DNA of 64,000 nucleotides from an uncultured bacterium (GTDB lineage Bacteria > AUK180), in contig CALMGJ010000029.1 in the NCBI GenBank assembly GCA_937863565.1, positions 10,991-74,990 on the forward strand, in the 5' to 3' direction. This document shows positions 1 through 17,049 of the stretch, one piece after another. The notes below the pieces were generated by a model. The model searched no databases. It had not been told where the DNA came from and saw only the letters and a program-made list of their open reading frames with translations. Numbering within the stretch: position 1 is the stretch's first letter; the number at the start of each line of letters is the position of its first letter. A program made the position numbers and the translations under genes.

Positions 1-277
1 TGGATATGTCGAGCGCAAAGACTATATTGCCGCCCTCACTCCATTCCTTCAGAGTTTTATCCGTCGTAAGTGGGCCTGCAAGCGAGACCACCGCAAGGAT
101 GAAAGCGGCAGTCTTTAAAGCAAGAACGATAACCGATCTTGCAGAGATCCGGAAATTGAAATTCCCCCTTAGAGAAGGTGCGGAATATTTTTTTAGAAGT
201 TCAATTACTTTTATGAAAACCGGAACAATGAAAACAAGAAAAGCAAGGAAAAGAAAATAAGCCTTCTGTTCTATCAT
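1..277 (-). CDS. batB: BatB-like von Willebrand factor A (VWA) membrane protein, N-terminal part only (gene runs off the window start)
   Basis: Minus-strand translation from ATG 277..275: MIEQKAYFLFLAFLVFIVPVFIKVIELLKKYSAPSLRGNFNFRISARSVIVLALKTAAFILAVVSLAGPLTTDKTLKEWSEGGNIVFALDIS... This gives two TM helices followed by the start of a VWA/MIDAS region (IVFALDIS), which is the BatB layout. Its ATG overlaps the batA stop (ATGA). It is absent from the ORF track because the window edge truncates it. Confidence 0.6.
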   Translation of the reverse strand, partial: MIEQKAYFLFLAFLVFIVPVFIKVIELLKKYSAPSLRGNFNFRISARSVIVLALKTAAFILAVVSLAGPLTTDKTLKEWSEGGNIVFALDIS

Positions 278-1226
278 AGGCATATGGCATAACGCCTTCG
301 GATCAGAATGAATTCAAGCATGAGAAGGAGGATTAAAACTATGTTTAGGAGCCGGTATTTCGGGTAGAACACCCTGTGTTTAAGTGTTTTCACTTTTTCC
401 TTTTCTAAAGCGGCGATCTCCGCATAGGCCTTTTTAAGGGCATCGGCATTATCACCGTAATAATATTTCCCTCCGGTCGCTCCCGCAATGTTCCGGAGCA
501 GCTCTTCATTGAGTTTCGTTGACTGCGTATGAATGCGGCCGAACAGATCCTTCTGACGGAAAATATAGCCCTCCGGAGTTCCCATGCCGATCGTATATAT
601 TCTTATGCCTTCCTTTTTCGCGATACCGGCAACCGAGGAGGGATCGGCTCCCCTGTTATTTTCGCCGTCGGTAAGAAGGACAATGATCTTTGAACGGTTC
701 TCGGAGCGTTCGAGGTCGTTCAATGCGACTGCCAGCGCATCTCCGATAGCGGTTCCGTCAATGCGCACCATTCCCGTATATGCGTCTGCCAGCATATTTT
801 TCGGTATTTCATGATCGAATGTAAGAGGAGACTGCGTGAAGGCGAAACCCGAGAACATGACAAGAGCCATCCGGTTGCCTCTCATGTTCTCGATGAACTC
901 CAGAACCACTTTTTTTGCCGCTTCAAGCCTGTTCGGTTCGAAATCATTGGCTTCCATGCTTCCCGAGACATCGAAGCAGATCACGGTATCTGTCGAAAGT
1001 TTGATCTCTTTCTTTTCTTCCCATTCATATCCGGGAAGAGCGAGTATGAGAATATAGAGAGAAAGAACCGCCGGGATCAGAATGCCGAAATAGACATCCC
1101 TTTTTTTTTAGATCCTGCGGTAAGATCGTAACTGAACGATTTTTTTACAAAAATGAGCGCTGAAAAAAGGAATAATAAGAACGGAACAACAAGAGCAAAA
1201 AGCCAGATGCCGTTTTTAAAGATCAT
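274..1226 (-). CDS. batA: BatA-like VWA-domain membrane protein with its reading frame broken in an A9 homopolymer: N-terminal 49 codons (1226..1080) are out of frame with the VWA body (tracked ORF 984..274, open upstream to 1107)
   Basis: The tracked ORF 274..984 (GTG start) encodes ICFDVSGSM...LTDGENN...TIGMG (VWA MIDAS motifs) and a C-terminal TM helix. The same frame stays open upstream to 1107 and reads KKRDVYFGILIPAVLSLYILILALPGYEWEEKKEIKLSTDTVICFDVS. A second frame starts at ATG 1226..1224 and reads [42 protein letters not shown] before stopping just after the A9 run (plus-strand T9 at 1101..1109). A10 instead of A9 would fuse both parts into one ~330-aa BatA-like protein. Confidence 0.75.
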
Positions 1227-1480
1227 TATTCCTTGGGATTTACATTAGCGAATTTTCCGAACCTGTTCTTTGTATATTTTACGATCCCGTTCGTTAAAGC
1301 GAAAAGTGTATCGTCGTCGCCCTGGCCGACATTCTTGCCGGGTTTGATCTTAGTGCCTCTCTGGCGAACAAGTATCGAACCTGCGGTAACGAGCTGCCCG
1401 TCAAAAATCTTAACGCCGAGCCTTTTCCCGGCCGTATCCCTTCCGTTCCTCGATGAACCCTGTCCTTTATGATGTGCCAT
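1226..1480 (-). CDS. rpmA: 50S ribosomal protein L27
   Basis: [36 protein letters not shown] matches the conserved L27 N-terminus. The stop TAA (1228..1226) overlaps the batA ATG (TAATG). Confidence 0.95.
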
Positions 1481-1490
1481 AGCGTTCTCC

Positions 1491-1793
1491 TTATCCTAAT
1501 TTGATCTCTTTTATCTTCACTTGAGATAAAAGCTGCCTGTGACCTTTCGTGAGATGATAGTTCTTTCTCCTTTTGAATTTAAAGGCGATGACCTTCTTAT
1601 CCTTGAAATTTTTCACTACTTCTCCTTTAACCGTCACTTTACCGGGGTCGATTATCTTCTGATCGTTATCGATGGCGAATTTCACTTCGAAATTCACTTC
1701 TTCGCCTTCTTTCTTTTTCAGATACTCGACATCGATCACGTTGCCCTGTTCGACCTTGTACTGTTTGCCGCCGCTGCCTATTACAACGAACAT
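1491..1793 (-). CDS. rplU: 50S ribosomal protein L21
   Basis: [17 protein letters not shown]...[17 protein letters not shown] matches the L21 family. The tracked ORF begins 10 codons upstream. The ATG at 1793 sits 5 nt after a GGAGG Shine-Dalgarno, so it is the likelier start. Confidence 0.9.
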
Positions 1794-1812
1794 ATGCACC
1801 TCCAAAAAGAAC

Positions 1813-1840
1813 ATTATACACAAATAAGAAAAAAAATCAA
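1813..1840 (-). promoter_or_regulatory. Candidate sigma70-type promoter for the rplU-rpmA-batAB transcript
   Basis: The minus strand reads TTGATT, 16 nt, TATAAT. The -35 is at 1840..1835 and the -10 at 1818..1813, immediately upstream of the GGAGG plus ATG of rplU. Consensus hexamers can arise by chance in AT-rich DNA. Confidence 0.35.
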
Positions 1841-1898: not shown

Positions 1899-2420
1899 CT
1901 ACTTTTTGATCATCCTCTCATAGATCAAGCTGAAAATACTTTTAATATCGAATCCTGCTTCTTTCAGCTTTTCTTCATACTCGGTTTTGTCCTCAACCGA
2001 GAAGTAATTCACGAGGATCTGCAGAAATGCGCGGATATTCTCAATGAAATTGATATATTCCGTATCGATGCCGCACTGTACGATCATTTCCTTGTTCTGA
2101 TGGACAAATTCCTGAAGCGCTCCGGATACCCTTTCCGAATCTTCGACAACATGTTTTTTAAGAAGCTCAAGTTCCTGGGGCGTGAATTCAGTTTTTGCCA
2201 CATAGGAGTATTTTTTAAGCTCCGGGAACTTCTTCTCGAGTTCGAACTTGAAGGCCCTGTGTATATCCGAAAGATAGTCCTCGAAACAATTCCCTTCCAG
2301 TTCTTTCCAGGAAAAGTGTTCAAGGTATTTAATTTTCTTGAGGATTTCTATGCCGGCGTTCTGTTCCTGTTTCGAAGTACTGTCGCCACCCTTGGCGCCG
2401 TTCGTATTCTTCTCCATCAT
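1899..2420 (-). CDS. Hypothetical protein (173 aa, acidic, no recognisable motif)
   Basis: It is a long ORF in the same orientation as its neighbours. Its ATG overlaps the stop of the upstream small ORF (ATGA). Confidence 0.6.
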   Translation of the reverse strand: MMEKNTNGAKGGDSTSKQEQNAGIEILKKIKYLEHFSWKELEGNCFEDYLSDIHRAFKFELEKKFPELKKYSYVAKTEFTPQELELLKKHVVEDSERVSGALQEFVHQNKEMIVQCGIDTEYINFIENIRAFLQILVNYFSVEDKTEYEEKLKEAGFDIKSIFSLIYERMIKK

Positions 2421-2587
2421 TTCACCAAGAGGAATACCAGTATATAGAAGACCGCCGTGATCACTATTGCAATGATCAAAGGTTTTTTATAGAAAGTAAA
2501 ATCGGGTTCATCTATTTTTTCCTCGATAGGCTGAATACTCTCTTCCTGTTTTCTTTCCGCTTGCATTTCTTTTTTTCTTTTTTTCAT
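2417..2587 (-). CDS. Small membrane protein (56 aa), missing from the ORF track
   Basis: The ORF runs from ATG 2587..2585 to TGA 2419..2417 and encodes MKKRKKEMQAERKQEESIQPIEEKIDEPDFTFYKKPLIIAIVITAVFYILVFLLVK. That is a basic/acidic N-terminus followed by one C-terminal TM helix. It overlaps the PPIase stop (ATGA) and the next gene start (ATGA), and it fills an otherwise empty 160-nt gap exactly. Confidence 0.5.
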   Translation of the reverse strand: MKKRKKEMQAERKQEESIQPIEEKIDEPDFTFYKKPLIIAIVITAVFYILVFLLVK

Positions 2588-3915: not shown

Positions 3916-4045
3916 TGACAACCTCGGTATTTTGTATTTATAGCAGAAAACGCATTTTTTTTCAATGGAGAAGGACGAGATGACATCATATCTTAATGGG
4001 AAGCCATTTTTTGCTTTTTTAATTTTTTTTTGATACAATAATATT

Positions 4046-6184
4046 ATGAATCGAAAGAATATCGACTTCAATGACCTGGTAAGGCTTTTTCTGAAGAACT
4101 ACGTATATATCATTATCTCTGTTGTTCTTTTTACTTCCGCAGCTTTTTTGGCGGCGTTCAGGGCTAAAAAGATATACCGTGTCGAAAGCACTGTGATGCT
4201 GAACATGAATTCTCAGTCGAGCCAACTAACCAATGCCTACTTCCCGTATCTCTGGAACCCCAATATCATACAGAATCAGATCTATATAATCAAATCCTAT
4301 TCTCTGATGCGCAATATTTACAGCAATGCCGGACCTGATATCATCGAGAGGATCTGCCGTTATGCCAGGAACGAACTTGCGGGTGAACCGGAAAGAATGA
4401 AGTTCTTTATGGATTTTCTGCTCGGGTCCATTGTCATCAAACCGGTCGAGGACTCTGATATCATTGTGATATCCTTCGATCTGGACGATCCCGGGCTGGC
4501 GGTGCAGGTACTGGACCTGATCGTTTCAAATTACCGCGATTTTGACCTGGCCATACAAAAAGAAGAGACCGATATGATCAAAAAATTCCTCGAGCAGGAG
4601 ACCGAGCATTACAGGGATCTTCTTCAGGAATCCGAGAACCGTTTGAAATCGATGAAACTTGATATGAAATCGAATTATCTGGGCAATGAAGCTAAGGAGA
4701 TACTCGAGAAATACGGAAAATTCCAGGAAGATTATTATAAGAACGAGGTCCTGCTTGCCGAGAACAGGAATCACCATGCTTTTCTCTCGAAAAGGATAGA
4801 GGATTTTAAAAATACACTCGGTAAGAACATTCCTCTCTCCAATGAGAGGATCAATATACTCATCAGTAAGATTTCGGCATTGGAATCGGATAAGATCTCG
4901 CTCTCTTCATCGGGCTACGGTGAAGAGAACGAGAAATACAAGGAGATCACGGCCAAGCTCGATGTCCTATACAAGGACCTGAGGACGGAGATCAATTCAT
5001 TCATAGAATCTAATATGACCAATAAGATCTTCTCTATCTATCAAGATGACCTTGTCAAGATCCTGAATCTCGAACGCGATATCAAGGTCCTCGAGGCAAA
5101 GGAAAAAGCTTATAAGGGGATATTGAAGGACTACGAGGGGGAACTCGCCACATTGCCTCAGAAACAGTTGGAATTCTCGCGGATCTACAGGGAAGTGGAG
5201 CTGAACGAAAAGATCTTCAATATGCTGAAGGAAAAACTGGAAGAAGCAAAGATACAGAATGAAGGCGTGATAAGTAAAGTCCAGATCATCGACAGGCCCG
5301 TGAAGCCGAGCGGTCATATAAGACCTCACAGACGGAACATTATTCTCATGGGGATGATATTCGGCATATTCTTCGGTGTGTTTTTCATTCTTCTCAAATC
5401 TTACCTTTTCGCTTCAGCCGATGCAGAGGAATTAAAAAGAAAGTATTCCATCGCCAATAAGATGGACATTCCCAATTTCATGAAGGACCCTGATTTCCAC
5501 AACGCCGTTTCGGGTTCTTTCAAGGGCACATCCGGAAAGACCCGTTTCGGAGAATTCCTTCATCTTCTCAAATTGAATTTCGGGACCTACGAAAAGAACT
5601 GCCCCGGAAAGAAAACCGTTCTCGTAACCTCTCCGATGCCGGCAACTGGCAAATCGACCTTTGTTTACCTTTTATCCCTGGCCCTGACGGAGAAAAGCGG
5701 CAGGCAAGTGCTTGTTTTAGATACCGATCTTCGTAAACCGATACTTCATAAATTGTTCGGTATTGAGCGCGAAAAAGGTATTACGGATATCTATACGGAT
5801 AAAGAGAGCAGGATAGAGGGCCTTATAAGGACCGTGGGAGAAGGCATCCACTTCATCAGCGCTGGACCCTCATCCAATATCTCTCCAATAGAAGTTTTAA
5901 CCTCTCAGCGCTTCAAAGACCTTCTCACCTATGCCAATGAACATTACGATCTTGTTCTCCTCGACTCGCCGCCCATTCTGAATCTTCCGGATGCGATCTC
6001 CATGAGCTCTTCAACGGATTGCGTGATGCTCGTGATATCAGAGACGAAGACATCGGCTGTGCACGCGGAGAACGCGATCAGGGAAATACAGGATCACGGG
6101 GCTGAGATCTCGGTTCTGATCAATAATCTTTCCTTCAAGAAAAGCATGGAATACAGATACGGCTATTATTCGTATAATGAGTGA
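4046..6184 (+). CDS. Polysaccharide co-polymerase / tyrosine autokinase (Wzc/ExoP/GumC-like BY-kinase)
   Basis: The protein has an N-terminal TM, a long coiled-coil periplasmic region, a second TM, and then a cytoplasmic P-loop ATPase (VTSPMPATGKST...VLVLDTDLRKP...LVLLDSPPILN). It ends in a Tyr-rich tail, YRYGYYSYNE. Confidence 0.8.
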   Translation: MNRKNIDFNDLVRLFLKNYVYIIISVVLFTSAAFLAAFRAKKIYRVESTVMLNMNSQSSQLTNAYFPYLWNPNIIQNQIYIIKSYSLMRNIYSNAGPDIIERICRYARNELAGEPERMKFFMDFLLGSIVIKPVEDSDIIVISFDLDDPGLAVQVLDLIVSNYRDFDLAIQKEETDMIKKFLEQETEHYRDLLQESENRLKSMKLDMKSNYLGNEAKEILEKYGKFQEDYYKNEVLLAENRNHHAFLSKRIEDFKNTLGKNIPLSNERINILISKISALESDKISLSSSGYGEENEKYKEITAKLDVLYKDLRTEINSFIESNMTNKIFSIYQDDLVKILNLERDIKVLEAKEKAYKGILKDYEGELATLPQKQLEFSRIYREVELNEKIFNMLKEKLEEAKIQNEGVISKVQIIDRPVKPSGHIRPHRRNIILMGMIFGIFFGVFFILLKSYLFASADAEELKRKYSIANKMDIPNFMKDPDFHNAVSGSFKGTSGKTRFGEFLHLLKLNFGTYEKNCPGKKTVLVTSPMPATGKSTFVYLLSLALTEKSGRQVLVLDTDLRKPILHKLFGIEREKGITDIYTDKESRIEGLIRTVGEGIHFISAGPSSNISPIEVLTSQRFKDLLTYANEHYDLVLLDSPPILNLPDAISMSSSTDCVMLVISETKTSAVHAENAIREIQDHGAEISVLINNLSFKKSMEYRYGYYSYNE

Positions 6185-7424
6185 GTTAAGGAAGAATATT
6201 TTCGGCCTCTTCGGATTTTCACTTCTTGACAGGATCGTGTCGGGATTTCTGCAGTTGATCATTTTCACTATCGTGATCAGGCATCTTGCTCCCGAGGATG
6301 TCGGGCTTCTTGGGATATTCGGCGGTATAGCCGTCTTTTTCAACCTTGCCAATATCTCTCCGTCCTCGATCATGATCAGGGATTATCCGAAGATCGGGAA
6401 CGAACTCGACCTCCATCTGGGAAACTATATCATCTTTTCTTATGTCAAGATGTTCTTTTTCCTCGTGGCAGGCTTTTTTTTCGCCATTTTTCTTCTTCCA
6501 AAATACGGGAACCCTGCATTCACTTTCCTATTATACATTCTTTTCTTCTCCTTTCAGAATTTCATAACGGTACCGGAGGAAGCCCTCTATGTATCATTCA
6601 AGAACAATATCGTTTTTTTCTCCAACCTTGTTTTCAATCTTTTCCAGCTCGGTTTTTTTATCGTCCTTTTTAAATTCACGGGAGCGCTTCTCCACTATAT
6701 TCTTGCCGTATTCCTTTTGAATGCGTTTTTCTTCTTCATTATGCTGTTCGTGATAGAAAGAACGCTTAATATCCGTATACGGTACAGAATGGACATCAAA
6801 GATTTCTGGAAGCATAATATCCTTCATTTCACCGTGTGGAACCACCTCAACGGCGCGATCACATATCTTATATACCGCATAGATACTTTTGTCCTCTCTT
6901 TCTTTTCGGACCTGCGAACGATCGCTTCCTATACGGTAGCCCTCACCGTCTCCAATTATTTCTTCATTATCCCCATGATAGGGGAAAAAGCATTAAAAGT
7001 AGGTTATTCCCGCCTCTTGGAAGAACCGGACAAGGAGGCCGGGGTTTTCCGATACGGAACCGCAGTGCTGAATGCAATCTCTATTTTTCAGTATGCTGTT
7101 TTCCTTATTTTCGGAAAATGGTTCATTTGTTTTCTTTTTCCTGAAGTGCAGAATAAGGAAAGCATCTTTTTATTTTCTTCGATCATTATCGCCGGGGTGA
7201 CGATCCTGAATCTATCGAGACCGCTCACCGCCTACATCTTCAATAAAAGCTCGCTCAGATCGATGTTCTTGTCCATATATCTGCCCGGAGGGCTTTTTTC
7301 CCTTGCCGTATATTTCACTGCCGGGCATCTTTTCGGGCCCATAGGGGTTGCCTGGGGCAATGTCGTCAATTACGGATTTTTGGCCGTACTCGTTCTGATG
7401 TTTTTCCTGAGGTCAAGACGATGA
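6177..7424 (+). CDS. Polysaccharide biosynthesis protein, Wzx-type flippase (MOP superfamily)
   Basis: The 415-aa protein is very hydrophobic with about 12 predicted TM segments. It lies in a polysaccharide locus immediately after the Wzc-like gene. Confidence 0.6.
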   Translation: MSELRKNIFGLFGFSLLDRIVSGFLQLIIFTIVIRHLAPEDVGLLGIFGGIAVFFNLANISPSSIMIRDYPKIGNELDLHLGNYIIFSYVKMFFFLVAGFFFAIFLLPKYGNPAFTFLLYILFFSFQNFITVPEEALYVSFKNNIVFFSNLVFNLFQLGFFIVLFKFTGALLHYILAVFLLNAFFFFIMLFVIERTLNIRIRYRMDIKDFWKHNILHFTVWNHLNGAITYLIYRIDTFVLSFFSDLRTIASYTVALTVSNYFFIIPMIGEKALKVGYSRLLEEPDKEAGVFRYGTAVLNAISIFQYAVFLIFGKWFICFLFPEVQNKESIFLFSSIIIAGVTILNLSRPLTAYIFNKSSLRSMFLSIYLPGGLFSLAVYFTAGHLFGPIGVAWGNVVNYGFLAVLVLMFFLRSRR

Positions 7425-8653
7425 ATTCTTTTAACGCATATATGGGCGAATTGATGCGCAATATCCTCACCTTTATAGACGATAACGGACGCGTTCATGG
7501 AATAACAGCAACATACTGGGAGCAGAGATTCGAAAGCCCGTCCAATATCATGAACGCTTATCCGCTCCTGCTGGCATTCTGCAGGATATTGAAGAAATAT
7601 CCTGACGGGGAGCTTGAAGCCGTTGCCGCCAAGCTCGCTGAGGGGATATTGAAAGAAGCCCGGGATGACGGTTCTTACGGAAATTCATTCGGAGATATCC
7701 GAAACACACCTGCGCCGCCGATCATACAGATAGCCGCATCCATTGCCCTTCTTGATTACGCTCACCGCGACGGGAACAGGAAGACGCTTGAAGCCGTGGA
7801 AAGGAATTGCCGTTTCATCCGCGGGAATTACATGAAGGACGGGCTTCTTAAGAACAGGGTCGTTAATCAGAATGCCATGCTCCTGGAGCTCTATTTCAAA
7901 CTCAGGGAGAACGGGATGGATTCCGGGTGGATCGATACCGGGAAAGTGCTGTCTTTCATACTCGGATATTTTCATCCGCGTACAGGAGGGTTCTTTCACG
8001 CCCATCATCTTCCGGATATGCTGTCTTTTTACAATGCCAAGATTCTCAATGCGCTTCTTACATGTATCGAGAACGGTCTGCAGAACGAAGAGACCGAGAA
8101 TGCCGTTTACAAGAACGCTTTTTTTCTAAAGGGACTTTATTCGGATGAGCGGAGGGCTTTTGCTGCAGGTTATTTCCCGAAGGAGAGTTTTCTGGATAAA
8201 CTGAGAAAGCGCCTCCGCCGCTATAATTCGCCGGCTGAATATTTTTCGGGACTTGAATTCTTCCGGAGGGAAAAACCGCTTTTCATTGCAAGAAGCGCAA
8301 ATTCATTCATACCCCTTCTGAGGTACGCTTCGATATTCAAACAGGAAGTGATCCCGGAAGGATCTATCCTGGATTTCTTCGGATATCATATACGGAAGAA
8401 CGGGAGCATGCCTAATGCCGAAGGACTTTCAAGGAGATCCGGGGATGATTGGATGGATCTGGCGACCGTCACGAGATGGCAGGGATACTGCGTACTGCTT
8501 CTTTCATTTCTTTCCGAAGGAAGCGTAAGACCCGCACCTGGTACCGACGATTGCCTTGTGTCGCGCGGGAACACGGTCTATATGGAGCATAAAAGAACGA
8601 TCTCATATTCTTTCGGAACGGACGCAAGGAGTTTGGACAAATGGCAAAAGTAG
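7421..8653 (+). CDS. Hypothetical protein, possibly the alpha-helical N-terminal half of a heparinase II/III or alginate-lyase-like enzyme
   Basis: It is a 410-aa soluble protein with no signal peptide, in the EPS locus. The family guess is from memory of the fold and locus context and is weak. Confidence 0.35.
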   Translation: MNSFNAYMGELMRNILTFIDDNGRVHGITATYWEQRFESPSNIMNAYPLLLAFCRILKKYPDGELEAVAAKLAEGILKEARDDGSYGNSFGDIRNTPAPPIIQIAASIALLDYAHRDGNRKTLEAVERNCRFIRGNYMKDGLLKNRVVNQNAMLLELYFKLRENGMDSGWIDTGKVLSFILGYFHPRTGGFFHAHHLPDMLSFYNAKILNALLTCIENGLQNEETENAVYKNAFFLKGLYSDERRAFAAGYFPKESFLDKLRKRLRRYNSPAEYFSGLEFFRREKPLFIARSANSFIPLLRYASIFKQEVIPEGSILDFFGYHIRKNGSMPNAEGLSRRSGDDWMDLATVTRWQGYCVLLLSFLSEGSVRPAPGTDDCLVSRGNTVYMEHKRTISYSFGTDARSLDKWQK

Positions 8654-9708
8654 TCATTATTTCTCACTGGTATTACCCCGCACTGGGCGCAGCGCCCTTC
8701 AGGGCAGGCAATTTCATCAAACTGTTCATGTCCCGGGGACATCAGGTCCTTCTCATTACGGGACAGAAGGAGGCAGGTTTTACCGATGATCTGCCTATTG
8801 TGAAAATGGACCTTAAAAATGAGGCGGCTCTCACTAAAAAGATACTTTCCTTCAAGCCGGACCTCATTCTTTTCACGGTCCCCCCCACCTTCGGCATCAA
8901 TGCTATCAAGAACCTTGCTCTCAAGGGGCATAAAGTGATACTCGATATAAGGGACCCTTTGTTCTATACATACAATAGCGGCAATATCATTAAGAAAAAG
9001 CTCCTCAGGATAGTGGAAAAGACGCTGATAGAGCATTCGAAGATCGCCGTGATAAACTCGGTAGGGATCAAAGAGATCTACGAGGATGACGATGTGGAGA
9101 AGATCTTTTATTATCTTCCCAACGGGTACGATGCAATGCTTTTCGACGGCCATGCGGAGTTTACAAGGAAGATACTCTATTTCGGCGCTTTTAATGTAAT
9201 GCACTCGATCCCCAATTTCAAAAAATTCTTCGCTTTGTACGAGAAGGACATCGTAAAGCGCGAATACCTGTTTGACTTCTACTGCTTCCCTTCACCTGAA
9301 TTGAACGAGATAAGAAAGATCTCTTTGGAGAACGGCTGGAAATTCCTCCGTTTCTTCGAACCCATAACATCCGAAAGATTCAAAGACAAACTGAAGGACT
9401 ATTCACTCGGTTTGACAATAGTGAAAACGATCTATAACTATTCGATGCCTTCAAAATTCTACACATATCTTGCTCTCGGGATACCCACAATGAACATCTC
9501 TTTCGGAAGGAGCATCATTTCCAGGATCTCCCGCGATATGCATCTCGGTTTCGATGTTAATCCGGAGGTCTACAGCCCGGATTTTTTCGATAATCTCGAA
9601 AATAACTTCAAGGCCTATTCACGCGATGTGCTGAAGAGCCGAGGGATTTTCCTTTGGGAAAAACTCGCAGATGATTTCTATGAATCGGAGATCAAATGCC
9701 TGTTGTAA
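8641..9708 (+). CDS. Glycosyltransferase, GT4-like
   Basis: The N-terminus MAKVVIISHWYYPALGAAPFRAGNFIKL matches the GT4 N-terminal subdomain. Size and locus context fit. Confidence 0.6.
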   Translation: MAKVVIISHWYYPALGAAPFRAGNFIKLFMSRGHQVLLITGQKEAGFTDDLPIVKMDLKNEAALTKKILSFKPDLILFTVPPTFGINAIKNLALKGHKVILDIRDPLFYTYNSGNIIKKKLLRIVEKTLIEHSKIAVINSVGIKEIYEDDDVEKIFYYLPNGYDAMLFDGHAEFTRKILYFGAFNVMHSIPNFKKFFALYEKDIVKREYLFDFYCFPSPELNEIRKISLENGWKFLRFFEPITSERFKDKLKDYSLGLTIVKTIYNYSMPSKFYTYLALGIPTMNISFGRSIISRISRDMHLGFDVNPEVYSPDFFDNLENNFKAYSRDVLKSRGIFLWEKLADDFYESEIKCLL

Positions 9709-10457
9709 ATTCTTTCTCGATGAACGGTCCGGATTCATTCACCGTAGAATTATCGAACGGGCGTAAAATCCTTTTCGGCGATTGGGGTTTCGAACTCGGC
9801 AACTGGTATTCATTCTTTTCCCTCCGGACCGGAAGAGGGTTGAACTCTTCTTTAAAGGATCATGATTCCCTTCAGAGCGTGAACATGCGGACCGAAAGGG
9901 GCATTATTGAACTCCTGAACGCAGAATTTTCCTTTACGTACTGCGACAGCATTGAAAGCGGTACTCTCAAAAGATCGATCGAACTGATACCCGTTCGGGA
10001 TTCTTTTCTCGGAGATGTGGCCTTGAGAGCATCTTTCCCCTCTTCCTGCGCATTCAAACTGAACGGGAAAAGTATTCATCATAGAGGGTCTAATCTGTAT
10101 CGGACCTTTCCCGAGAGGTCGATATTCGAGATTGACGGGGTCCGTTTCACGGAAAAGTTCACAGGTGCGGGCGAAGAGTTCTTACGGCGCTCGTATATCC
10201 GCGATGAACGCACGGGAAAATTCATCTTTCATTCTAGGATCGTAGCAGCGCGCGAAGATGAGCTCTTTATCAAGATCATAAAGAACAATAAGATCATAAG
10301 AAAAAGCATTCTGCTCCAAGTATCATTTCTTAAATACTTTTTTTATTATGCGCGGGAACGGTTCTGGGCGGGAGCGTGTTTCCAGATCTGTTCAAACTCC
10401 TTTTTAAAAAAAGGCGAAACATTGCAGTTCGGCGCGGAGTATGTCTTTGACGATTGA
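9696..10457 (+). CDS. Hypothetical protein, possibly a heparinase II/III C-terminal-like beta domain
   Basis: The 253-aa protein is predicted beta-rich and lies in the EPS locus two genes after 7421..8653. The assignment is weak. Confidence 0.3.
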   Translation: MPVVNSFSMNGPDSFTVELSNGRKILFGDWGFELGNWYSFFSLRTGRGLNSSLKDHDSLQSVNMRTERGIIELLNAEFSFTYCDSIESGTLKRSIELIPVRDSFLGDVALRASFPSSCAFKLNGKSIHHRGSNLYRTFPERSIFEIDGVRFTEKFTGAGEEFLRRSYIRDERTGKFIFHSRIVAAREDELFIKIIKNNKIIRKSILLQVSFLKYFFYYARERFWAGACFQICSNSFLKKGETLQFGAEYVFDD

Positions 10458-11433
10458 AAATATCAAACCTCTTATTATCTCTCAACTTCCCCTGAAGAAT
10501 AGAACAGGAGGAGTTGAGGTCTGGACCGGACAATTGAAGCGCTTTTTCAAAAATGCCGTTATCGTAGGACCGCCCGAAGGCATGCCCTTGTCCAGATTCG
10601 AACATATCAATGCACAAAGGACAGTCAAGGCCGCCATCGAGAATTATGAACCCCGGGATTTCGACCTCGTGATCACATCCGGCATGGGAGGACATACTTT
10701 ATCGGACATCAAATTGAAGCGGGTGAATTTCTTTCACGGCAACTGGATGGGGTTCCGCGATCATTGTTATAGGATATTCGACCGCAGGTATATTTCCATT
10801 TCCGTTCTGAAGATCCCGTATGAGATTAAAAGTGCAAAGAACGCCTTGAACATCCCTGTTTCGAAATTTGTGGCAGATTGCTTGAACAAAGAAAGGATAG
10901 GAAGGCAGGTCCTGATCTATAATACTGTATTTACGGAATACATAAAGAGTACACCGGAATATGCGCTTTTCGTGGGGAGGCCGACAGCGGAGAAGGGCTT
11001 CGGTATTTTCCTTCACATATGCAGGCGGAACCCCCGGGACAGGTTCACCGCCGTTATCCCCTCAGGCAGGAAACTTGCCGGGATCCCTGAGAATCTTGAA
11101 ATACTCTATGATATCCCGAACAGTGACATGAGAGCCGTATACGGCAAAGCCTCGATGCTTATCATGCCTTCTCTTTTCGAGGGCAATTCCTTCGTGATCC
11201 TCGAAGCGCTGGCCTGCGATGTTCCCGTCATAGGGAGCAATGTGGGATTATTATGGGAACTGGATGATATCCCCGGACGGATAGTGAATGGTTTCGAGCT
11301 TGAAGAATGGAGCAGGGCCTATCGCGACATGAAGGATCTTGGACACGGGACTTCTCCGAAAAAATTCTTTTTAGATCATTATTCCCCTTCTGCTATAAAC
11401 GAGCAATGGGAAAGAGCACTGGAGATGCTATGA
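10441..11433 (+). CDS. Glycosyltransferase family 4 (RfaG-like)
   Basis: The C-terminal GT4 signature is present: ...MPSLFEGNSFVILEALACDVPVIGSNVG... Confidence 0.8.
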   Translation: MSLTIENIKPLIISQLPLKNRTGGVEVWTGQLKRFFKNAVIVGPPEGMPLSRFEHINAQRTVKAAIENYEPRDFDLVITSGMGGHTLSDIKLKRVNFFHGNWMGFRDHCYRIFDRRYISISVLKIPYEIKSAKNALNIPVSKFVADCLNKERIGRQVLIYNTVFTEYIKSTPEYALFVGRPTAEKGFGIFLHICRRNPRDRFTAVIPSGRKLAGIPENLEILYDIPNSDMRAVYGKASMLIMPSLFEGNSFVILEALACDVPVIGSNVGLLWELDDIPGRIVNGFELEEWSRAYRDMKDLGHGTSPKKFFLDHYSPSAINEQWERALEML

Positions 11434-12239
11434 TGCTCAGCGTGATCATCTGTACTTCAGGAAAAAGGGAAAGGGAGCTTGGCCTTCTTATGGAGGATAT
11501 TAAAACCCAGAACTTTCCGGATCACGAAGTGGTTCTTATCAAAGGCGTTTTCCCTGTTGGCAGGGCGCGGAATCTTGGGATCAGAAAAGCCATGGCGGAC
11601 ATCGTTCTTTTTCTTGACGATGATGCGCGTATAGACGATCCTGCCCTTTTCAGGAAATTCTTCAACGCATGTTCGCGCGATCAATATTCTGTATTCGGTG
11701 CGGGTCGGCTCGGAGGGAACAGGCTCAACTTTTTTCAGAGACTTATATTGACTTTTATCCCGAGGGAGCTCATCCCTCCCGTTACCGCAGATACTCCAAG
11801 CGATCTTATCGCAACGATGTGCATGGGAGGACAAAAGAGGATATTTGAAGGAACTCCTTTTGATGAACGCATAACTGCCGGAGAGGATACGAAATTCCGT
11901 TCTGCTATCAGAAAGAAGGGTTTCACGACGGTACTGCTTGCAAATTCGTACATTTGCCACCCTCCGCGCAAGAACATAGAAGACCTCATCATTCAGAGGA
12001 TATGGTACGGCAGAGGCATTTCGCAATTGCGTTTTAGAGGGAAAAAAGCCCCCCTCCCCGTCAAGATCGGCCTGATCTTCTATCTTGCCCTGAGATTTTT
12101 TTTCATGCCCGTTCATTCCTTTCTGCCCAACCTGAATTCATTTATCAGAAAAGAAGAACCGCTGAAGCCCCGATTTAATCCGTTCTATGCCTTTTTTGAC
12201 CTTTTCTATGCCTATGGGTATGTGAGTAATGCGGTCTGA
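11430..12239 (+). CDS. Glycosyltransferase family 2
   Basis: The true start is probably the ATG at 11430, overlapping the upstream stop (ATGA). It reads MMLSVIICTSGKRERELGLLMEDIKTQNFPDHEVVLIKG...LFLDDDARID, a GT-A DxD fold. The tracked ORF begins 41 codons earlier inside the previous gene. Confidence 0.75.
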   Translation: MMLSVIICTSGKRERELGLLMEDIKTQNFPDHEVVLIKGVFPVGRARNLGIRKAMADIVLFLDDDARIDDPALFRKFFNACSRDQYSVFGAGRLGGNRLNFFQRLILTFIPRELIPPVTADTPSDLIATMCMGGQKRIFEGTPFDERITAGEDTKFRSAIRKKGFTTVLLANSYICHPPRKNIEDLIIQRIWYGRGISQLRFRGKKAPLPVKIGLIFYLALRFFFMPVHSFLPNLNSFIRKEEPLKPRFNPFYAFFDLFYAYGYVSNAV

Positions 12240-13617
12240 AACCGGCAGAATATTCCTTATCCTGGCCGTCGCTTTCAGCATTTTCTTCTTTTTTGCGCCG
12301 AAGATCGCTCTTCTCGTTTTCTTTATGATCTGCTCCATTATCCTTGCGCTCTATGAAAAGAAAGCTTTCTTCTATACCTTCATCGTTCTTCTTCCGGTTT
12401 CCTTCAGCGTTGATCTTAATCTGTTCGGGATACAGGATATTTTTATTGCCGACCTTTTCTTCCTCTGCATTTTCATCGCGTTCCTTCTCGAAAAAGTGCT
12501 CCGTGAACCGCCTAAGATAGAGATGTCCCTGCTCGTGTACCTTCTTTTGATCTTTTGTTTTATCTCCGTTCTTTCGATCATCTATGCCAAGATCCGACTT
12601 GACCAGAACGAACTGTACAGGATCAATTCGATCCTACATATCAAATATGCCATATTGAACAAACAGACCCTGCGCCCTCCGGTGGTAGGGAATATCGTTC
12701 TTTTCTTCAGGACGGTCTATCCGTTCTTCCTTTATTATTACGTTCGTTCGGAGATATCGACGGAGGAGAAGGAGATCAAACTTCTTCTGAAGTTCATTCT
12801 TGTTGCCGGAGTTCTTGTTTCCATTTTCGGGTGGCTTACTAAACTTGATATCATTCCGGGAAGAATAATGGATCTGTACACCGGCTCTCCTGTACGGGGT
12901 CACATAATGCGTATTAGTTCCACTTTTGATAATCCTCAGGCCTTCGGTGCATTTCTCTCCATTCCCCTTTCAGTGTGTTATTATTACATCCTTCAAAGGG
13001 AGAAGAATGTTCTGTTGTGGTTTCTTTTCGTTTTCATGCTATCCATTTTTGTCTTCACTTATTCCCTGGGGGCCTTTGCTGCGTTTTTGTGCTCGCTGCT
13101 TTTAATAACGTTCACGTCAAAGCGCTCATCTTTCTCCAGACTAATCCTATTCGGGCTGATCGCATTTTTTGTGGCGTTTTTCTTTCTGAAGAACGATATC
13201 ATATTGGCGAAGATACGCGGCTCCGTTCAATATGTGAATCCCCGTAAGATATTCCCCTCCACGACACAGGCGCGTTTGATCCAATGGGGACGATGGCTCG
13301 AGATCATGAGAAAGCATGTGTTGCTCGGATTGGGATACCCCCTTGTCTGGACGGATAACAATTACCTGAAGATGTTCGTCAATGCCGGGATCCTGGGATT
13401 TTTAACATTCTGGACAATAGTGATCCATATGACATTGAAAGGCATTGCAGTCCTCCGAAAAGGAAAAAATGCCGCTGCGACGATCTTCCTTTCCATTGCA
13501 ATGGTCTATTTCATCCACAGTTTTTCCTATGATCTTTCGGCTGTTTTTAAAATGAACGCTTATTTCTTCATCTTTGCCGCGATCATATCGAGGCTCCATG
13601 AAAATGAAAATAATTGA
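12229..13617 (+). CDS. O-antigen ligase / polymerase-like (Wzy_C family) integral membrane protein
   Basis: The 462-aa protein has more than 10 predicted TM helices with a larger loop near the C-terminal third. It sits in the EPS locus. Confidence 0.55.
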   Translation: MRSETGRIFLILAVAFSIFFFFAPKIALLVFFMICSIILALYEKKAFFYTFIVLLPVSFSVDLNLFGIQDIFIADLFFLCIFIAFLLEKVLREPPKIEMSLLVYLLLIFCFISVLSIIYAKIRLDQNELYRINSILHIKYAILNKQTLRPPVVGNIVLFFRTVYPFFLYYYVRSEISTEEKEIKLLLKFILVAGVLVSIFGWLTKLDIIPGRIMDLYTGSPVRGHIMRISSTFDNPQAFGAFLSIPLSVCYYYILQREKNVLLWFLFVFMLSIFVFTYSLGAFAAFLCSLLLITFTSKRSSFSRLILFGLIAFFVAFFFLKNDIILAKIRGSVQYVNPRKIFPSTTQARLIQWGRWLEIMRKHVLLGLGYPLVWTDNNYLKMFVNAGILGFLTFWTIVIHMTLKGIAVLRKGKNAAATIFLSIAMVYFIHSFSYDLSAVFKMNAYFFIFAAIISRLHENENN

Positions 13618-14626
13618 CGCGACGATCCTTTCGCGCAGAGATACCGGCGTTGCCAGAGGCATTAGGCAGATCATTATATCAAGGTCCGGCAGGAAGGATT
13701 ACATCATGCTTGTCAATAAGCATTTTAATATCCCCGGCATCTACCGCAAAGTAATGCTTCCGTTCTCCCATATCGGCCCCGTGCGCTTCATTTATCAGAT
13801 CTTCCTCATGCCTTTCATTCTGGCGTATTTTAAAGCGGAATGGTATGTCTCCCCTACTCACATCCTTCCGCTTTTCAAGTATGGCAAGTATCTGGCCGTA
13901 GCTCACGATATGATGCTCTACAGGGTAAAAGGAAAATACCCTTTTTTCAAGTCTCTGCTCTATCATTTCTACTATCTTCTTACATATTCTAACGCGGACG
14001 TGCTGGTAACATCCTCGGAAAACTCGCGCAATGAGATCGCAGCCTTTTCCAAAAAGAGGGTTTTCATTGTCCGCTTGAAAGTCCAACTCGACCTGGATGT
14101 CAATAAACCCTTATATGCCCTTCTTGGGAAGAAATTCATACTTACGGTGGGGTCTCTCGAGAAGGGGAAGAATATAGGGCTTCTCGTTAAGGCTTATGCG
14201 CTTCTCCCCGAAGCGCTGAGAAGGGAGTACGAACTCGTTATTACGGGAAAGAACGTGAACTCTTCGGATGAGCTCACGAAGCTGGTTCGAAGTGCCGGGA
14301 TCGGCAACAGTACGTCTTTTACGGGATTTGTGACCGATCCGGAACTTATCTGGCTTTACAGGAACTGTTCTCTTTTTGTGTTCCCGTCATTATATGAGGG
14401 CTTTGGTTTCCCGGTCATAGAGGCCCTTGCATGCGGAGCAAAGGTCATTGCCTCCGATACTTCCTCTATTCCTGAAATTCTCCGGAACCCCGCTTACAGG
14501 TTCTCTCCCTATGTTCCGGAAGATCTTTCATCTCTAATGCGTAGAATGTTGACGGACAGGGAATTCTCATCGGATTACACACGCTGGCTCGGAGAAGAAA
14601 AGGAATTTTTAAAAAAGTACTTCTGA
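13598..14626 (+). CDS. Glycosyltransferase family 4
   Basis: The likely start is MKMKIIDATI at 13598. The GT4 motif is present: ...FVFPSLYEGFGFPVIEALACGAKVIASDTSSIPEI. Confidence 0.8.
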   Translation: MKMKIIDATILSRRDTGVARGIRQIIISRSGRKDYIMLVNKHFNIPGIYRKVMLPFSHIGPVRFIYQIFLMPFILAYFKAEWYVSPTHILPLFKYGKYLAVAHDMMLYRVKGKYPFFKSLLYHFYYLLTYSNADVLVTSSENSRNEIAAFSKKRVFIVRLKVQLDLDVNKPLYALLGKKFILTVGSLEKGKNIGLLVKAYALLPEALRREYELVITGKNVNSSDELTKLVRSAGIGNSTSFTGFVTDPELIWLYRNCSLFVFPSLYEGFGFPVIEALACGAKVIASDTSSIPEILRNPAYRFSPYVPEDLSSLMRRMLTDREFSSDYTRWLGEEKEFLKKYF

Positions 14627-14663
14627 TTTCGATAATAGAGCTTTTTTTGTTATAATTATAGCT

Positions 14664-16493: not shown

Positions 16494-17049
16494 TATCACC
16501 GAGATCGTACTTATCGCATTCGGTCTTTCAATGGATTCTCTGGCAGTTTCATTGACCGGAGGATGTTTTCTTAAAAAATTCCGCGTAAGGAAAGCACTGC
16601 TGCTGGCTTTCTCGTTCGGTTTTTTCCAGGGGATCATGCCGATTCTCGGATGGCTGGCAGGAAGTTTTTTTTCGTCAAAGTTCGCGAACTTCGATCATTG
16701 GATCGCTTTTATAATACTGCTTTTTCTCGGTATCAAGATGATCGCCGATTCGGGTAGAAAAGAAGAGAACAAAGGAGATTTCTTTTCCCCCGGCGCCCTC
16801 GTGCTAATGGGGATCGCTACAAGTATCGATGCATTCGGCGTAGGAATCACTTTCGCCTTCCTCGGTTTCAATATCCTTGCCGCAGTTCTGATCATTGCCG
16901 CGGTCACGGCCCTGATCTCATTCGGCGGGGTTTTTGTAGGATGCCGGTTCAATAGTCTGCTACCCGGGAGACTCGAGATAGCCGGAGGCGCAGTTATCAT
17001 CTTTATCGGAATGAAGATCCTTATTGAACACCTTTCATCAGGAGGATGA
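16486..17049 (+). CDS. mntP: Manganese efflux pump MntP
   Basis: MNNITEIVLIAFGLSMDSLAVSLTGG... is the MntP N-terminus, and the protein has about 6 TM segments. The start is internal to the tracked ORF at 16426. Confidence 0.8.
   Translation: MNNITEIVLIAFGLSMDSLAVSLTGGCFLKKFRVRKALLLAFSFGFFQGIMPILGWLAGSFFSSKFANFDHWIAFIILLFLGIKMIADSGRKEENKGDFFSPGALVLMGIATSIDAFGVGITFAFLGFNILAAVLIIAAVTALISFGGVFVGCRFNSLLPGRLEIAGGAVIIFIGMKILIEHLSSGG

Follow-up and report, generated by a model that had tools for sequence, protein, structure and literature searches.

The beginning of the 64-kb window (here, the whole stretch of DNA that was analyzed) raises the question of why a batA-like VWA gene on the minus strand is distributed between two reading frames that meet at a run of nine A, and whether and how a full-length protein is made from it. 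The initial annotation of this DNA offered three options, namely a sequencing error, a pseudogene or slippage. We favor the reading, with a probability of roughly 0.6, that the gene is genuine, is kept in the frameshifted state, and would give rise to its full-length product via slippage at the A9 run. The features that are relevant for this question are the following, in the direction of transcription.

1840-1813, minus strand: promoter-like site TTGATT-16-TATAAT, identified by a consensus scan alone
1491..1840, minus strand: rplU (L21; TIGR00061, E=8e-20)
1226..1480, minus strand: rpmA (ribosomal protein L27; TIGR00062 L27, E=3.7e-33)
1101..1226, minus strand: batA-like segment 1, frame 0, codons 1-42, with TM1 (approximately residues 6-31) and a cytoplasmic-type loop that ends in SKKK; aligned to the full-length relatives P0002 and P0003
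1108..1110, minus strand: TAA stop in the frame of the VWA body (-1), formed by a T and the first two A's of the run
1101..1109, minus strand: slippery A9 run (T9 on the plus strand), Lys codons 40-42 (AAA AAA AAA), with the heptamer A_AAA_AAA in frame 0
1077..1100, minus strand: frame-0 tail GMSISAF and TGA (1077-1079), the end of the default 49-aa product
274..1101, minus strand: batA-like segment 2, -1 frame, from R43 (AGG, 1101-1099) to L317, followed by TGA (276-274)
982..984, minus strand: GTG, the gene-caller start of a truncated 236-aa product (P0001), without an SD-like sequence, located three codons ahead of the MIDAS motif; the relatives do not share it as a start
1..277, minus strand: 5' part of a batB-like VWA gene that runs off the window; its ATG (277-275) overlaps the batA TGA (ATGA)

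The 49-codon N-terminal ORF (MIFKNG...AGSKKKGMSISAF) starts with the ATG at 1226-1224, which is preceded at a distance of 4 nt by an SD-like AAGGA, and ends with the TGA at 1079-1077. The VWA body, in the -1 frame, is open from 1107 to the stop at 276-274. The coordinates, the length of the N-terminal ORF and the location of the A9 at the junction are all as originally described. The two batA-like frames overlap by 31 nt (1077-1107), and the A9 run is the sole slip-prone sequence in this overlap. Because the TAA at 1110-1108 closes the body frame immediately upstream, this frame can be entered only at or after the run, and the required change of frame is -1, equivalent to one additional A in the mRNA. 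Insertion of one A yields a protein of 317 aa, somewhat shorter than the approximately 330 aa that had been proposed, with the arrangement TM-loop(KKK)-TM-VWA-TM. The restored protein aligns without a break to the full-length relatives and to the BatA N-terminal domain; segment 2 encodes TM2 (42-63), a PGYEW motif, the VWA domain, in which the MIDAS motif reads DVSGSM, and, at the C-terminus, TM3 (292-316). The tails that follow the run in frame 0 are equally short in the split relatives and show no conservation.

Several lines of evidence indicate that both halves belong to a single BatA-like protein, in agreement with the initial annotation. Residues 80-268 of the restored protein match the Pfam VWA domain (E=4.2e-22), with the DxSxS signature of the MIDAS present as DVSGSM, and the VWA domain also matches the PDB structures of BatB (3ibs) and of an aerotolerance-related protein (4jdu), with E-values of about 1e-28. 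The best NCBIfam match, which spans the junction, is NF047508 (VWA_BatA_Lepto; E=1e-45, 156 bits), a Leptospira-specific 'exception' model with a cut-off of 380 bits, so that the protein is to be regarded as BatA-like but not as a curated BatA equivalog. The N-terminal BatA domain, PF07584, consists of two TM helices with an (A)RPQ-type end. A direct Pfam scan for this domain yielded sub-threshold matches (E 0.017-0.2) in three of five N-termini of the clade and none in the N-terminus from the window, and a profile-profile comparison of the clade with the N-termini of PF07584-bearing homologs gave a probability of 96.3% (E=2e-9), with a colinear match over residues 1-73, that is, across the junction. 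The TM-TM-VWA-TM architecture, which had been expected to result from one extra A or a -1 slip, is predicted both by the hydropathy peaks (residues 1-32, 43-68 and 286-317) and by an AlphaFold model in which helices 6-31, 42-63 and 292-316 flank the VWA fold, with a loop between the first two and pLDDT values of about 90 or higher over most of the VWA domain. By analogy with the topology of BB0173 (PMC5700661), the VWA domain of the product is probably periplasmic.

The protein shares with the BatA/BatB VWA proteins of the aerotolerance operons (Bacteroides, Leptospira, Borrelia BB0173; PDB 3ibs, 4jdu) the MIDAS VWA domain, a two-helix N-terminal domain that is putatively of the BatA type, the C-terminal helix and a BatB-like paralog encoded directly downstream, but differs in that the gene follows rplU-rpmA rather than moxR and a DUF58 gene and in that the score is below the curated BatA cut-off. 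Whether Bat proteins act in aerotolerance or oxidative stress is a matter of dispute, even for Leptospira (PMC3557215). No report of a frameshift in a bat or VWA gene was found in the literature, including that on the characterized bat genes, and the main text of the GeneTack paper (PMC3711429) contains no VWA cluster.

The break recurs in other species. Among 5.8 billion proteins, the family forms a clade of six clusters at 90% identity, separated by a gap of at least 120 bits from all other proteins. Four of the six clusters are split at the same KKK codons, namely TCT-A9-GGG in the window, TCT-A10-CTT in L001, ATT-A10-TTC in L004 and TC-A10-GTA in L005. All four require the same -1 correction, one added A restores a protein of 308-317 aa in each, and none contains a second lesion. 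In the intact members, the run is interrupted: AAA AAA AAG (A8G) in L006 and AAA AAG AAA (A5GA3) in L007, L008 and L009. Homopolymeric A/T runs are subject to slippage from a length of about nine or more (PMC5009743), and, judging from their length, the runs of the two intact members are below this threshold. The contrast between split genes with runs of at least nine (four) and intact genes with shorter runs (two) corresponds to a Fisher p of about 0.07, by our own arithmetic on six taxa. The comparison of orthologs suggested in the initial annotation, which envisaged a run either interrupted or 10 nt long in related genes, is borne out in its first part, the intact genes having interrupted or shorter runs, but not in its second, since no intact gene with A10 was seen and the A10 orthologs are themselves split.

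Beyond this clade, no broken N-terminal frame and no A-run longer than 8 was detected in the distant batA loci L010-L087 (about 77 loci, one of which ends at a contig end). A scan of GTDB genomes retrieved only the intact species of the P0003 type (L008 and L009) and distant batA genes, which were used as background, and a degenerate pattern scan (GFAFTQSPLT) of JGI metagenomes produced three unrelated or distant matches only and no new member of the clade. L001 and L004 are sisters (100% bootstrap, 71% amino acid identity) and have the break in common. The inner topology of the clade is poorly supported (bootstrap 44-67%), so that one old frameshift and three independent ones are indistinguishable.

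The recurrence of the break bears directly on the possibility of a sequencing or assembly error, in which case the true genome would contain A10 in an intact gene and one A would have been dropped from the homopolymer. Homopolymers are the classic site of such errors, the sequence comes from a metagenome-assembled contig, each of the split species is represented by a single sample, and the contig of L005 has a coverage of 1.7x. Nevertheless, an error appears extremely unlikely, given that the same one-base deficit recurs in four species, each from a different sample and project, that A10 is not what the intact orthologs contain, their runs being short or interrupted, and that NCBI, Logan and ENA all list the truncated product of the gene in the window. 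Furthermore, L001-L003, which represent one sample assembled three times with three assemblers, agree on A10. Finally, each of the 17 runs of 8 A/T in the window falls within an open reading frame that extends for 120 codons or more, and L001 has an in-frame A9 in the gene that adjoins batA, so the break does not reflect a general homopolymer problem.

A run of nine or more A/T is as such not unusual for the composition of the window, because two were observed in the 64 kb compared with 0.8 to about 2.9 expected. The position of the run is unusual, the 31-nt overlap zone making up 0.05% of the window. The window has a GC content of about 46% and contains no other coding A9. In the set that consists of batA and 24 other long ORFs (AAA:AAG = 510:479), the batA run is the only Lys triplet that is encoded entirely by AAA, with none of the four KKK triplets in the other ORFs being of this type. 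In-frame A9 is tolerated elsewhere in AT-rich relatives, so that runs of at least nine are not strictly avoided.

Comparison of L001 with L004 provides an estimate of the selection that affects the different parts of the gene. Synonymous sites are saturated (pS 0.72-0.82), and pN is 0.33 in the N-terminal part (frame 0), 0.16 in the TM2 segment, which was scored in the -1 frame and precedes every start codon of that frame, and 0.17 in the VWA domain. By this measure, all segments of the gene are under purifying selection (pN/pS 0.2-0.4). The combination of a break shared at saturated synonymous sites with purifying selection argues against both an assembly error and a recent pseudogene. A decaying batA gene whose inactivation had resulted from a deletion in the run, with only batB still of importance, would be compatible with the finding that the Bat genes of Leptospira biflexa are dispensable under laboratory conditions (PMC3557215) and with the fact that homopolymer frameshifts are typical first steps of gene erosion (PMC3017870). 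We consider a pseudogene very unlikely because no further lesions have accumulated in any of the four split genes, because pN remains much lower than pS in each of the three segments, and because P65, G66, Y67 and W69 are still invariant and the rpmA-coupled start is conserved. Thus, the presence of the same break, always in the -1 direction, in three other species with A10 disfavors two of the three options considered originally, error and pseudogene, and favors either the third one, slippage, or phase variation.

The internal starts selected by gene callers in all four split genes, which result in truncated VWA products of 236-252 aa, suggest yet another interpretation, namely that the two parts of the split gene are expressed independently, as a 49-aa membrane peptide and as a VWA protein without an N-terminal anchor that would be initiated at GTG 984; such a body might still be anchored by its C-terminal TM helix. 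This arrangement is hardly credible. The called starts lack SD-like sequences and are not homologous, their distances from the conserved ICFD/LCLD motif, which they precede, being 3, 8, 16 and 24 codons as measured from the called N-termini, and a protein initiated at the GTG in the window would lack the beginning of the Pfam VWA match. In addition, the 22-43 codons between the run and the called starts are open and encode TM2 and the PGYEW motif, the part of the gene under the strongest constraint; the four invariant residues are upstream of the called starts in three of the four split genes.

Under the preferred reading, slippage at the A9 run, translation would begin at the ATG that overlaps the rpmA stop, with a 49-aa single-helix peptide as the default product, and in a fraction of the expression events the run would cause a -1 shift. 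This shift would most likely result from the addition of one non-templated A by RNA polymerase during transcription of the run, and tandem -1 ribosomal slippage on A_AAA_AAA might contribute. The shifted events would yield the 317-aa TM-loop-TM-VWA-TM protein, and the shifted ribosomes would reach the batA stop that overlaps the batB start. As a net effect, BatA, and probably the coupled BatB as well, would be attenuated strongly and to a fixed degree in comparison with the ribosomal-protein genes upstream. In bacteria, A/T runs of at least nine are efficient slippage sites, with insertion of A as the main class of products (PMC5009743, PMC4256274) and +1 A as the most frequent one, so that the need for one added A in all four split genes favors slippage. 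The anatomy of the gene, the recurrence of its break in orthologs, the purifying selection on each of its segments and the lack of a break in distant batA genes are direct results of the analysis; the occurrence of slippage, its level and the dominant step, polymerase or ribosome, are inferences.

With respect to the ribosomal route, the A_AAA_AAA heptamer is in the zero-frame register in all four split genes, followed in the -1 frame by AGG, AAC, AAT or AGT. Folding of 70 nt downstream of the run in the four split genes revealed no conserved RNA structure (z-scores from -0.55 to +0.5; structures not shared), and there is no conserved SD-like element upstream of the run, AGGA being present in the window alone among the four. 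The lack of a conserved frameshift stimulator favors the transcriptional route. The pulling force exerted on the nascent chain by the insertion of TM1 was also considered as a stimulator and was dropped; TM1 ends about 15 residues before the slip site and, as we reasoned, would still be in the exit tunnel.

The main rival to slippage, in our view a rather unlikely one, is phase variation, in which the 5' poly(A) tract would be hypermutable, replication slippage would reversibly toggle batA together with the coupled batB, and the assemblies would capture the OFF majority. The two mechanisms can coexist at one tract, and phase variation predicts much of the same pattern as slippage. The 5' ends of prokaryotic genes show an excess of poly(A) and poly(T) tracts, which cause reversible inactivation at about 1000 times the rate of point mutation (PMC2831843), and the GeneTack paper assigns such poly-AT clusters to phase variation (PMC3711429). 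Here, the tract is in the 5' part of the ORF (codons 40-42 of 317), the product is an envelope protein whose VWA domain is probably periplasmic, the relatives are a mixture of two ON and four OFF states, and periodic selection of ON cells would likewise keep the ORF intact. Conversely, all four OFF alleles are in one phase (ON minus 1) and none is ON plus 1, the two ON species carry interrupted, stable tracts rather than long switchable ones, and the sisters L001 and L004 have the same tract length and state across saturated synonymous divergence. Furthermore, A10 is present in all three assemblies of the sample that yielded L001-L003, and the search of 5.8 billion proteins yielded an in-frame allele for none of the four split species. 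None of these points against phase variation is decisive.

A more far-reaching version of slippage, which we regard as doubtful, is that the frameshift is an ancestral trait of a deep bacterial lineage of which few members have been sampled, and was selected as a recoding device that would set a fixed, low ratio of BatA/BatB to ribosomal proteins and would produce a micro-protein with a function of its own. Under this scenario, placement of the A-run directly behind the highly expressed rplU-rpmA genes, with BatB translationally coupled, would determine the ratio, the micro-protein would be the single-helix membrane product of 47-49 aa, and the two intact species would be secondary reversions in which the frame was fixed by breaking the run.

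There are documented cases in which transcriptional slippage corrects a poly(A) frameshift that has been conserved between species (PMC3017870). In Blochmannia and Buchnera (Tamas 2008 and Wernegreen 2010, via PMC3017870), a single-base frameshift in an A-run of at least nine interrupts an otherwise intact gene, the break is shared between species without further decay, and orthologs with interrupted runs are in frame. Those genomes are extremely AT-rich, with 114-153 coding tracts of at least nine A's (PMC3017870), so that the frameshifts there are a by-product of mutational bias, whereas the GC content here is about 46% and AAA and AAG are used about equally. In Citrobacter rodentium and Yersinia pseudotuberculosis, tssM, another chromosomal gene for an inner-membrane protein, is interrupted at a poly-A tract (A11); RNA polymerase adds A's, short and full-length products are made and, as in the present case, there are no stimulators of ribosomal frameshifting nearby (PMC4256274). 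The run in tssM is located late in the gene and both long products contain functional domains, in contrast to the run at codon 40 and the default 49-aa peptide here, and slippage in tssM has been demonstrated experimentally (PMC4256274) whereas here it is deduced from sequence. The run length of nine is shared with the sites of programmed transcriptional realignment in Shigella flexneri spa13 and mxiE (A/T9) and Thermus thermophilus dnaX (A9), which belong to other gene families and for which efficiencies of 25-50% have been measured (PMC5009743).

The heptamer register and the -1 direction resemble those of ribosomal frameshifting on A_AAA_AAA or A_AAA_AAG in E. coli dnaX and IS elements, where an upstream SD-like element and/or a downstream stem-loop or pseudoknot is present (PMC4066793), without a conserved counterpart in the batA-like genes. 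Listeria monocytogenes inlA (PMC2831843) is similar in that a 5' poly(A) tract in a gene for an envelope protein leads to a very short product when out of frame, but the state of inlA varies among strains of one species, whereas here the out-of-frame state is common to distinct species and the in-frame allele was not found.

Apart from mobile elements, phages and AT-rich endosymbionts, there are, to our knowledge, few chromosomal genes with a conserved dependence on slippage. The present case involves a genome with about 46% GC, an apparently free-living organism and a membrane-protein gene that is probably joined transcriptionally to a ribosomal-protein operon and, if slippage indeed occurs, would be a clean natural case for distinguishing selected attenuators from merely tolerated lesions. 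For annotation, the truncated VWA proteins without a membrane anchor that are called in the four species should give way to a single product of 313-317 aa that involves slippage or a -1 frameshift at the poly-A run, rather than being entered as fragments or pseudogenes. As this case illustrates, whether orthologs are in frame or broken can be used to tell an error from a pseudogene or a recoded gene, even without the reads themselves.

The usual Bat operon has the order moxR, DUF58 gene, batA-batB(-batC/D/E). This context is not found here: rplU and rpmA are located upstream, and of the bat genes only the batA-batB pair is present, followed in the relatives by a recX-like gene and then a histidine-phosphatase gene, with no batC-E. 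The rpmA TAA stop and the batA ATG share one base (TAATG), an overlap that is also found in L001, L004, L006 and L007, in split and intact species alike. The 4-nt batA/batB overlap is conserved in all relatives, and the best match of the L001 ortholog of the downstream gene is BatB; an ATGA stop/start overlap is an arrangement typical of translational coupling. No terminator-like site was found between rpmA and batA, and the rplU-rpmA-batA-batB transcription unit probably starts at the promoter-like site by rplU. Rfam and tRNA scans of the 64-kb window were both empty, and exact-sequence look-ups of the truncated product, L27, the 49-aa ORF and CheA returned no record. The organism looks free-living because CheA, PBP1 and an exopolysaccharide cluster are present. 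CheA has about six relatives at 58-66% identity, all others being at most 42% identical and from mixed phyla, and the labels given to the relatives by their submitters conflict, including 'bacterium', 'Candidatus Calescamantes' and 'Candidatus Atribacteria'.

The batA-like gene lies on the minus strand; its ATG (1226-1224), preceded by an SD-like AAGGA, has one base in common with the rpmA stop (TAATG). With the region read on both strands, the locus is laid out as follows.

rplU (L21) and rpmA (L27), minus strand: directly upstream of the batA-like gene; assigned by family matches
ATG 1226-1224 to TGA 1079-1077, minus strand: 49-codon ORF MIFKNG...AGSKKKGMSISAF
1110-1108, minus strand: TAA closing the body frame, formed by a T and the first two A's of the A9 run
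1109-1101, minus strand: A9 run, codons 40-42 (AAA AAA AAA); T9 on the plus strand
1107 to stop 276-274, minus strand: VWA body, open in the -1 frame

Because the N-terminal frame ends at 1079-1077 and the body frame is closed at 1110-1108, the stretch open in both frames spans just 31 nt, and nothing in it but the A-run is slip-prone, which agrees with the initial annotation in placing the frame junction at this run. One additional A yields a protein of 317 aa rather than the roughly 330 aa anticipated, with the anticipated TM-TM-VWA-TM architecture.

Several independent tests bear out the proposal that the two segments encode one BatA-like protein. The 317-aa product matches the Pfam VWA domain (E=4e-22), the structures 3ibs and 4jdu (BatB and aerotolerance VWA domains, E about 1e-28) and, as its best NCBIfam match, the Leptospira BatA model (E=1e-45, residues 40-308, starting at the frame junction), with BatB ranking behind; the score lies under the curated cut-off of this Leptospira-specific model. 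Across the junction, the reconstruction (SKKK-RDVYF) differs in length by at most one residue from its closest full-length homologs, P0002 (SKKK-IDVYY) and P0003 (SKKK-HRDKYF), and KKK is invariant. A profile of the first 80 residues of the clade is colinear over 1-73 with the N-termini of Pfam BatA-domain homologs (hhalign 96.3%, E=2e-9); direct Pfam matches to PF07584 are sub-threshold only. Hydropathy and the AlphaFold model (mean pLDDT 78.7) delineate a helix (6-31), a disordered K-rich loop (32-41), a second helix (42-63), a confident VWA fold and a C-terminal helix (292-316). By analogy with BB0173 (PMC5700661), the VWA domain probably faces the periplasm, with the K-rich loop on the cytoplasmic side. 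The canonical moxR and DUF58 gene context is absent at this locus. The product behaves like, and is most aptly called, a BatA-like VWA membrane protein, and its neighbour is BatB-like; what Bat proteins do is still under debate (PMC3557215).

Among 5.8 billion proteins, the clade comprises six 90%-identity clusters that score 433-572 bits against the clade profile, with all other proteins at or below 310 bits.

Poly(A) run and state of the batA-like gene in the clade (locus; junction; run; state)
Window; TCT-A9-GGG; A9; split, needs +1 A
L001 (= L002, L003; three assemblies of one sample); TCT-A10-CTT; A10; split, needs +1 A
L004; ATT-A10-TTC; A10; split, needs +1 A
L005; TC-A10-GTA; A10; split, needs +1 A
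L006 (P0002); AAA AAA AAG; A8G; intact
L007, L008, L009 (P0003 cluster, 7 members); AAA AAG AAA; A5GA3; intact

Split genes thus contain at least 9 uninterrupted A's, versus at most 8 in the intact orthologs. The initial annotation had proposed checking whether the run in orthologs is interrupted or 10 nt long: interrupted runs are found in intact genes, and the A10 genes are split. Adding one A (equivalent to a -1 shift) restores 313-317 aa, or 308 aa in L005, the contig of which is cut at the 5' end. The gene calls in the four split members are N-terminal truncations of 236-252 aa, and in L001, L004 and the window the gene callers left about 180-240 nt behind rpmA unassigned. The order rplU-rpmA-batA-batB is kept as far as the contigs reach, and the rpmA stop/batA ATG and batA stop/batB ATG overlaps are conserved. 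In this comparison of six taxa, with each split species drawn from one sample, the break is common to the sister pair L001 and L004 (100% bootstrap, 71% identity), and the tree does not settle the inner branching. The distant batA loci L010-L087 include no broken N-terminal frame (one locus runs off its contig) and no A-run longer than 8 in the N-terminal region, and at least 92 codons are open ahead of the MIDAS motif, compared to 46-59 in split genes.

In the intact L007 (about 553-561) and at the same site in L009, an in-frame T9 (GCC CTT TTT TTT TCA) lies ~30 nt upstream of the KKK codons, and the near-identical genome L008 reads CTG TTT TTT TCA (T7); this is a further homopolymer whose composition varies within the loop-coding region.

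A sequencing or assembly error is very improbable given that the same deficit, always in one direction, recurs in four species, each from a different sample and project. Three assemblers give an identical run for L001-L003; NCBI, Logan and ENA all list the truncated window product; each of the window's 17 A/T runs of 8 falls within an open reading frame of 120 codons or more; and the neighbouring 149-aa gene of L001 holds an in-frame A9 (L001:1781-1789). Decay into a pseudogene is hardly more credible because the sisters L001 and L004 have retained the same break although synonymous sites are saturated (pS 0.72-0.82), with pN of 0.33 in the N-terminal part (frame 0), 0.16 in the TM2 segment (-1 frame) and 0.17 in the VWA domain. 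We likewise give little credence to a split gene with a separately initiated body: the TM2 segment, which lies upstream of every candidate internal start, holds the invariant P65, G66, Y67 and W69, and the called internal starts, none with an SD-like sequence, are not at homologous positions. It follows that the run must be where ribosomes enter the body frame, and the conservation is not explained by independent initiation. In three of the four split genes (window, L001 and L004, with L005 lacking a body-frame TAA ahead of its run), the base before the run and its first two A's form the same TAA, so that entry upstream of the run is impossible.

We consider a maintained frameshift rescued by slippage to be the likeliest reading, with a probability of roughly 60%. 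Runs of 9 A or T are efficient slippage sites for bacterial RNA polymerase (Atkins et al., 2016, PMC5009743), yielding mainly added A's in diminishing proportions (PMC5009743; C. rodentium tssM, PMC4256274), and in Blochmannia, about 30% of transcripts are corrected at poly(A) frameshifts that different species share (PMC3017870). Slippage products are mainly A insertions, and exactly one more A is what each of the four split genes requires. All four also carry the heptamer A_AAA_AAA in the register that tandem -1 ribosomal slippage calls for; the split genes have neither a conserved downstream RNA structure (z between -0.55 and +0.5) nor a conserved upstream SD-like element, and we accordingly assign ribosomal frameshifting a possible, minor share. 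The default product would be a 47-49-aa single-helix peptide, with a minority of events yielding full BatA. Since the batB ATG overlaps the batA stop, batB translation may be throttled too, as described for genes downstream of Shigella slippage sites (PMC5009743). A promoter-like site upstream of rplU (consensus match only) and no terminator-like site ahead of batA in a consensus scan would fit co-transcription with the ribosomal-protein genes.

The main rival is phase variation, a reversible DNA-level switch, which we regard as unlikely. The textbook layout of such switches is, as here, a poly(A) tract in the 5' part of a gene for an envelope protein (PMC2831843; PMC3711429), and preservation of the ORF is equally expected. 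Nevertheless, every OFF allele is in one phase, the ON species have stable interrupted runs instead of long in-frame tracts, run length and state are identical in the sisters L001 and L004, and the protein search found no ON allele of any split species. None of these points is decisive, and slippage and phase variation can share one tract.

Frameshifts in homopolymers rescued by slippage are a known kind of feature, and we found no report of bat or VWA frameshifts in the literature. What is new is the gene family (BatA-like VWA), the recurrence of the break across a lineage, and the setting, an apparently free-living organism of normal GC content in which this is the sole coding A9 in 64 kb. 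The run by itself is within chance (0.8 to about 2.9 A/T runs of at least 9 expected in the window, two observed); its position is beyond chance, the overlap zone being 0.05% of the window. Across 24 long ORFs of the window, AAA and AAG codons number 510 and 479, and none of the four KKK triplets is all-AAA.

The other homopolymer of at least 9, with no further one in the window, is a T9 (plus strand, 4023-4031) between divergent genes. It precedes ATG 4046 of a Wzc-like tyrosine-kinase/chain-length gene (plus) by 15 nt and lies ~110 nt upstream of ATG 3915, a probable lipoprotein start (MKRKLTMALFITALFIMAAC) of a PpiC-type rotamase gene (minus). Lying in a divergent promoter or 5'-UTR region, it could affect expression of either gene.

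Other genes of the window bear on the nature of the organism.

49058-51025, minus strand: CheA (family match)
4046-17000, plus strand: exopolysaccharide-type cluster (NCBIfam), opened at 4046 by a 712-aa Wzc/EpsF-EpsG-like chain-length determinant and tyrosine autokinase
14664-16493, within the cluster: DUF4015 putative glycosyl hydrolase
26855-30424, minus strand: 1189-aa protein with an adenylate/guanylate-cyclase domain, AAA_16/NACHT (STAND) ATPase and TPR repeats
46124-48040, 22238-23878 and 33133-34962: TPR-rich proteins, the last with HD-domain (HD_5) and TPR matches

Several 350-415-aa ORFs of the cluster (6177-9708) have no NCBIfam match. Together with a class-A PBP also encoded here, CheA, the cyclase/STAND/TPR protein and the exopolysaccharide cluster argue against a reduced symbiont. 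CheA has about six relatives at 58-66% identity, followed by at most 42% across mixed phyla and archaea; like BatA, it thus has a handful of relatives and then a sharp drop, which indicates a deep, poorly sampled lineage. Exact database look-ups of the window's own proteins gave no match, and submitters' labels for the relatives are in conflict.

The interval from the rotamase gene to rplU holds two small conserved ORFs with no family match, both in the window (1899-2587, minus; 173 and 56 aa) and in L001 (1465-2108; 149 and 64 aa). The rotamase gene is intact in L001 (156-1481, ENA assembly), whereas in L002 (1-1481, NCBI MAG) this 441-aa gene is called in fragments (94 aa and an antisense 128 aa), which points to a local difference in assembly or strain between the two records.
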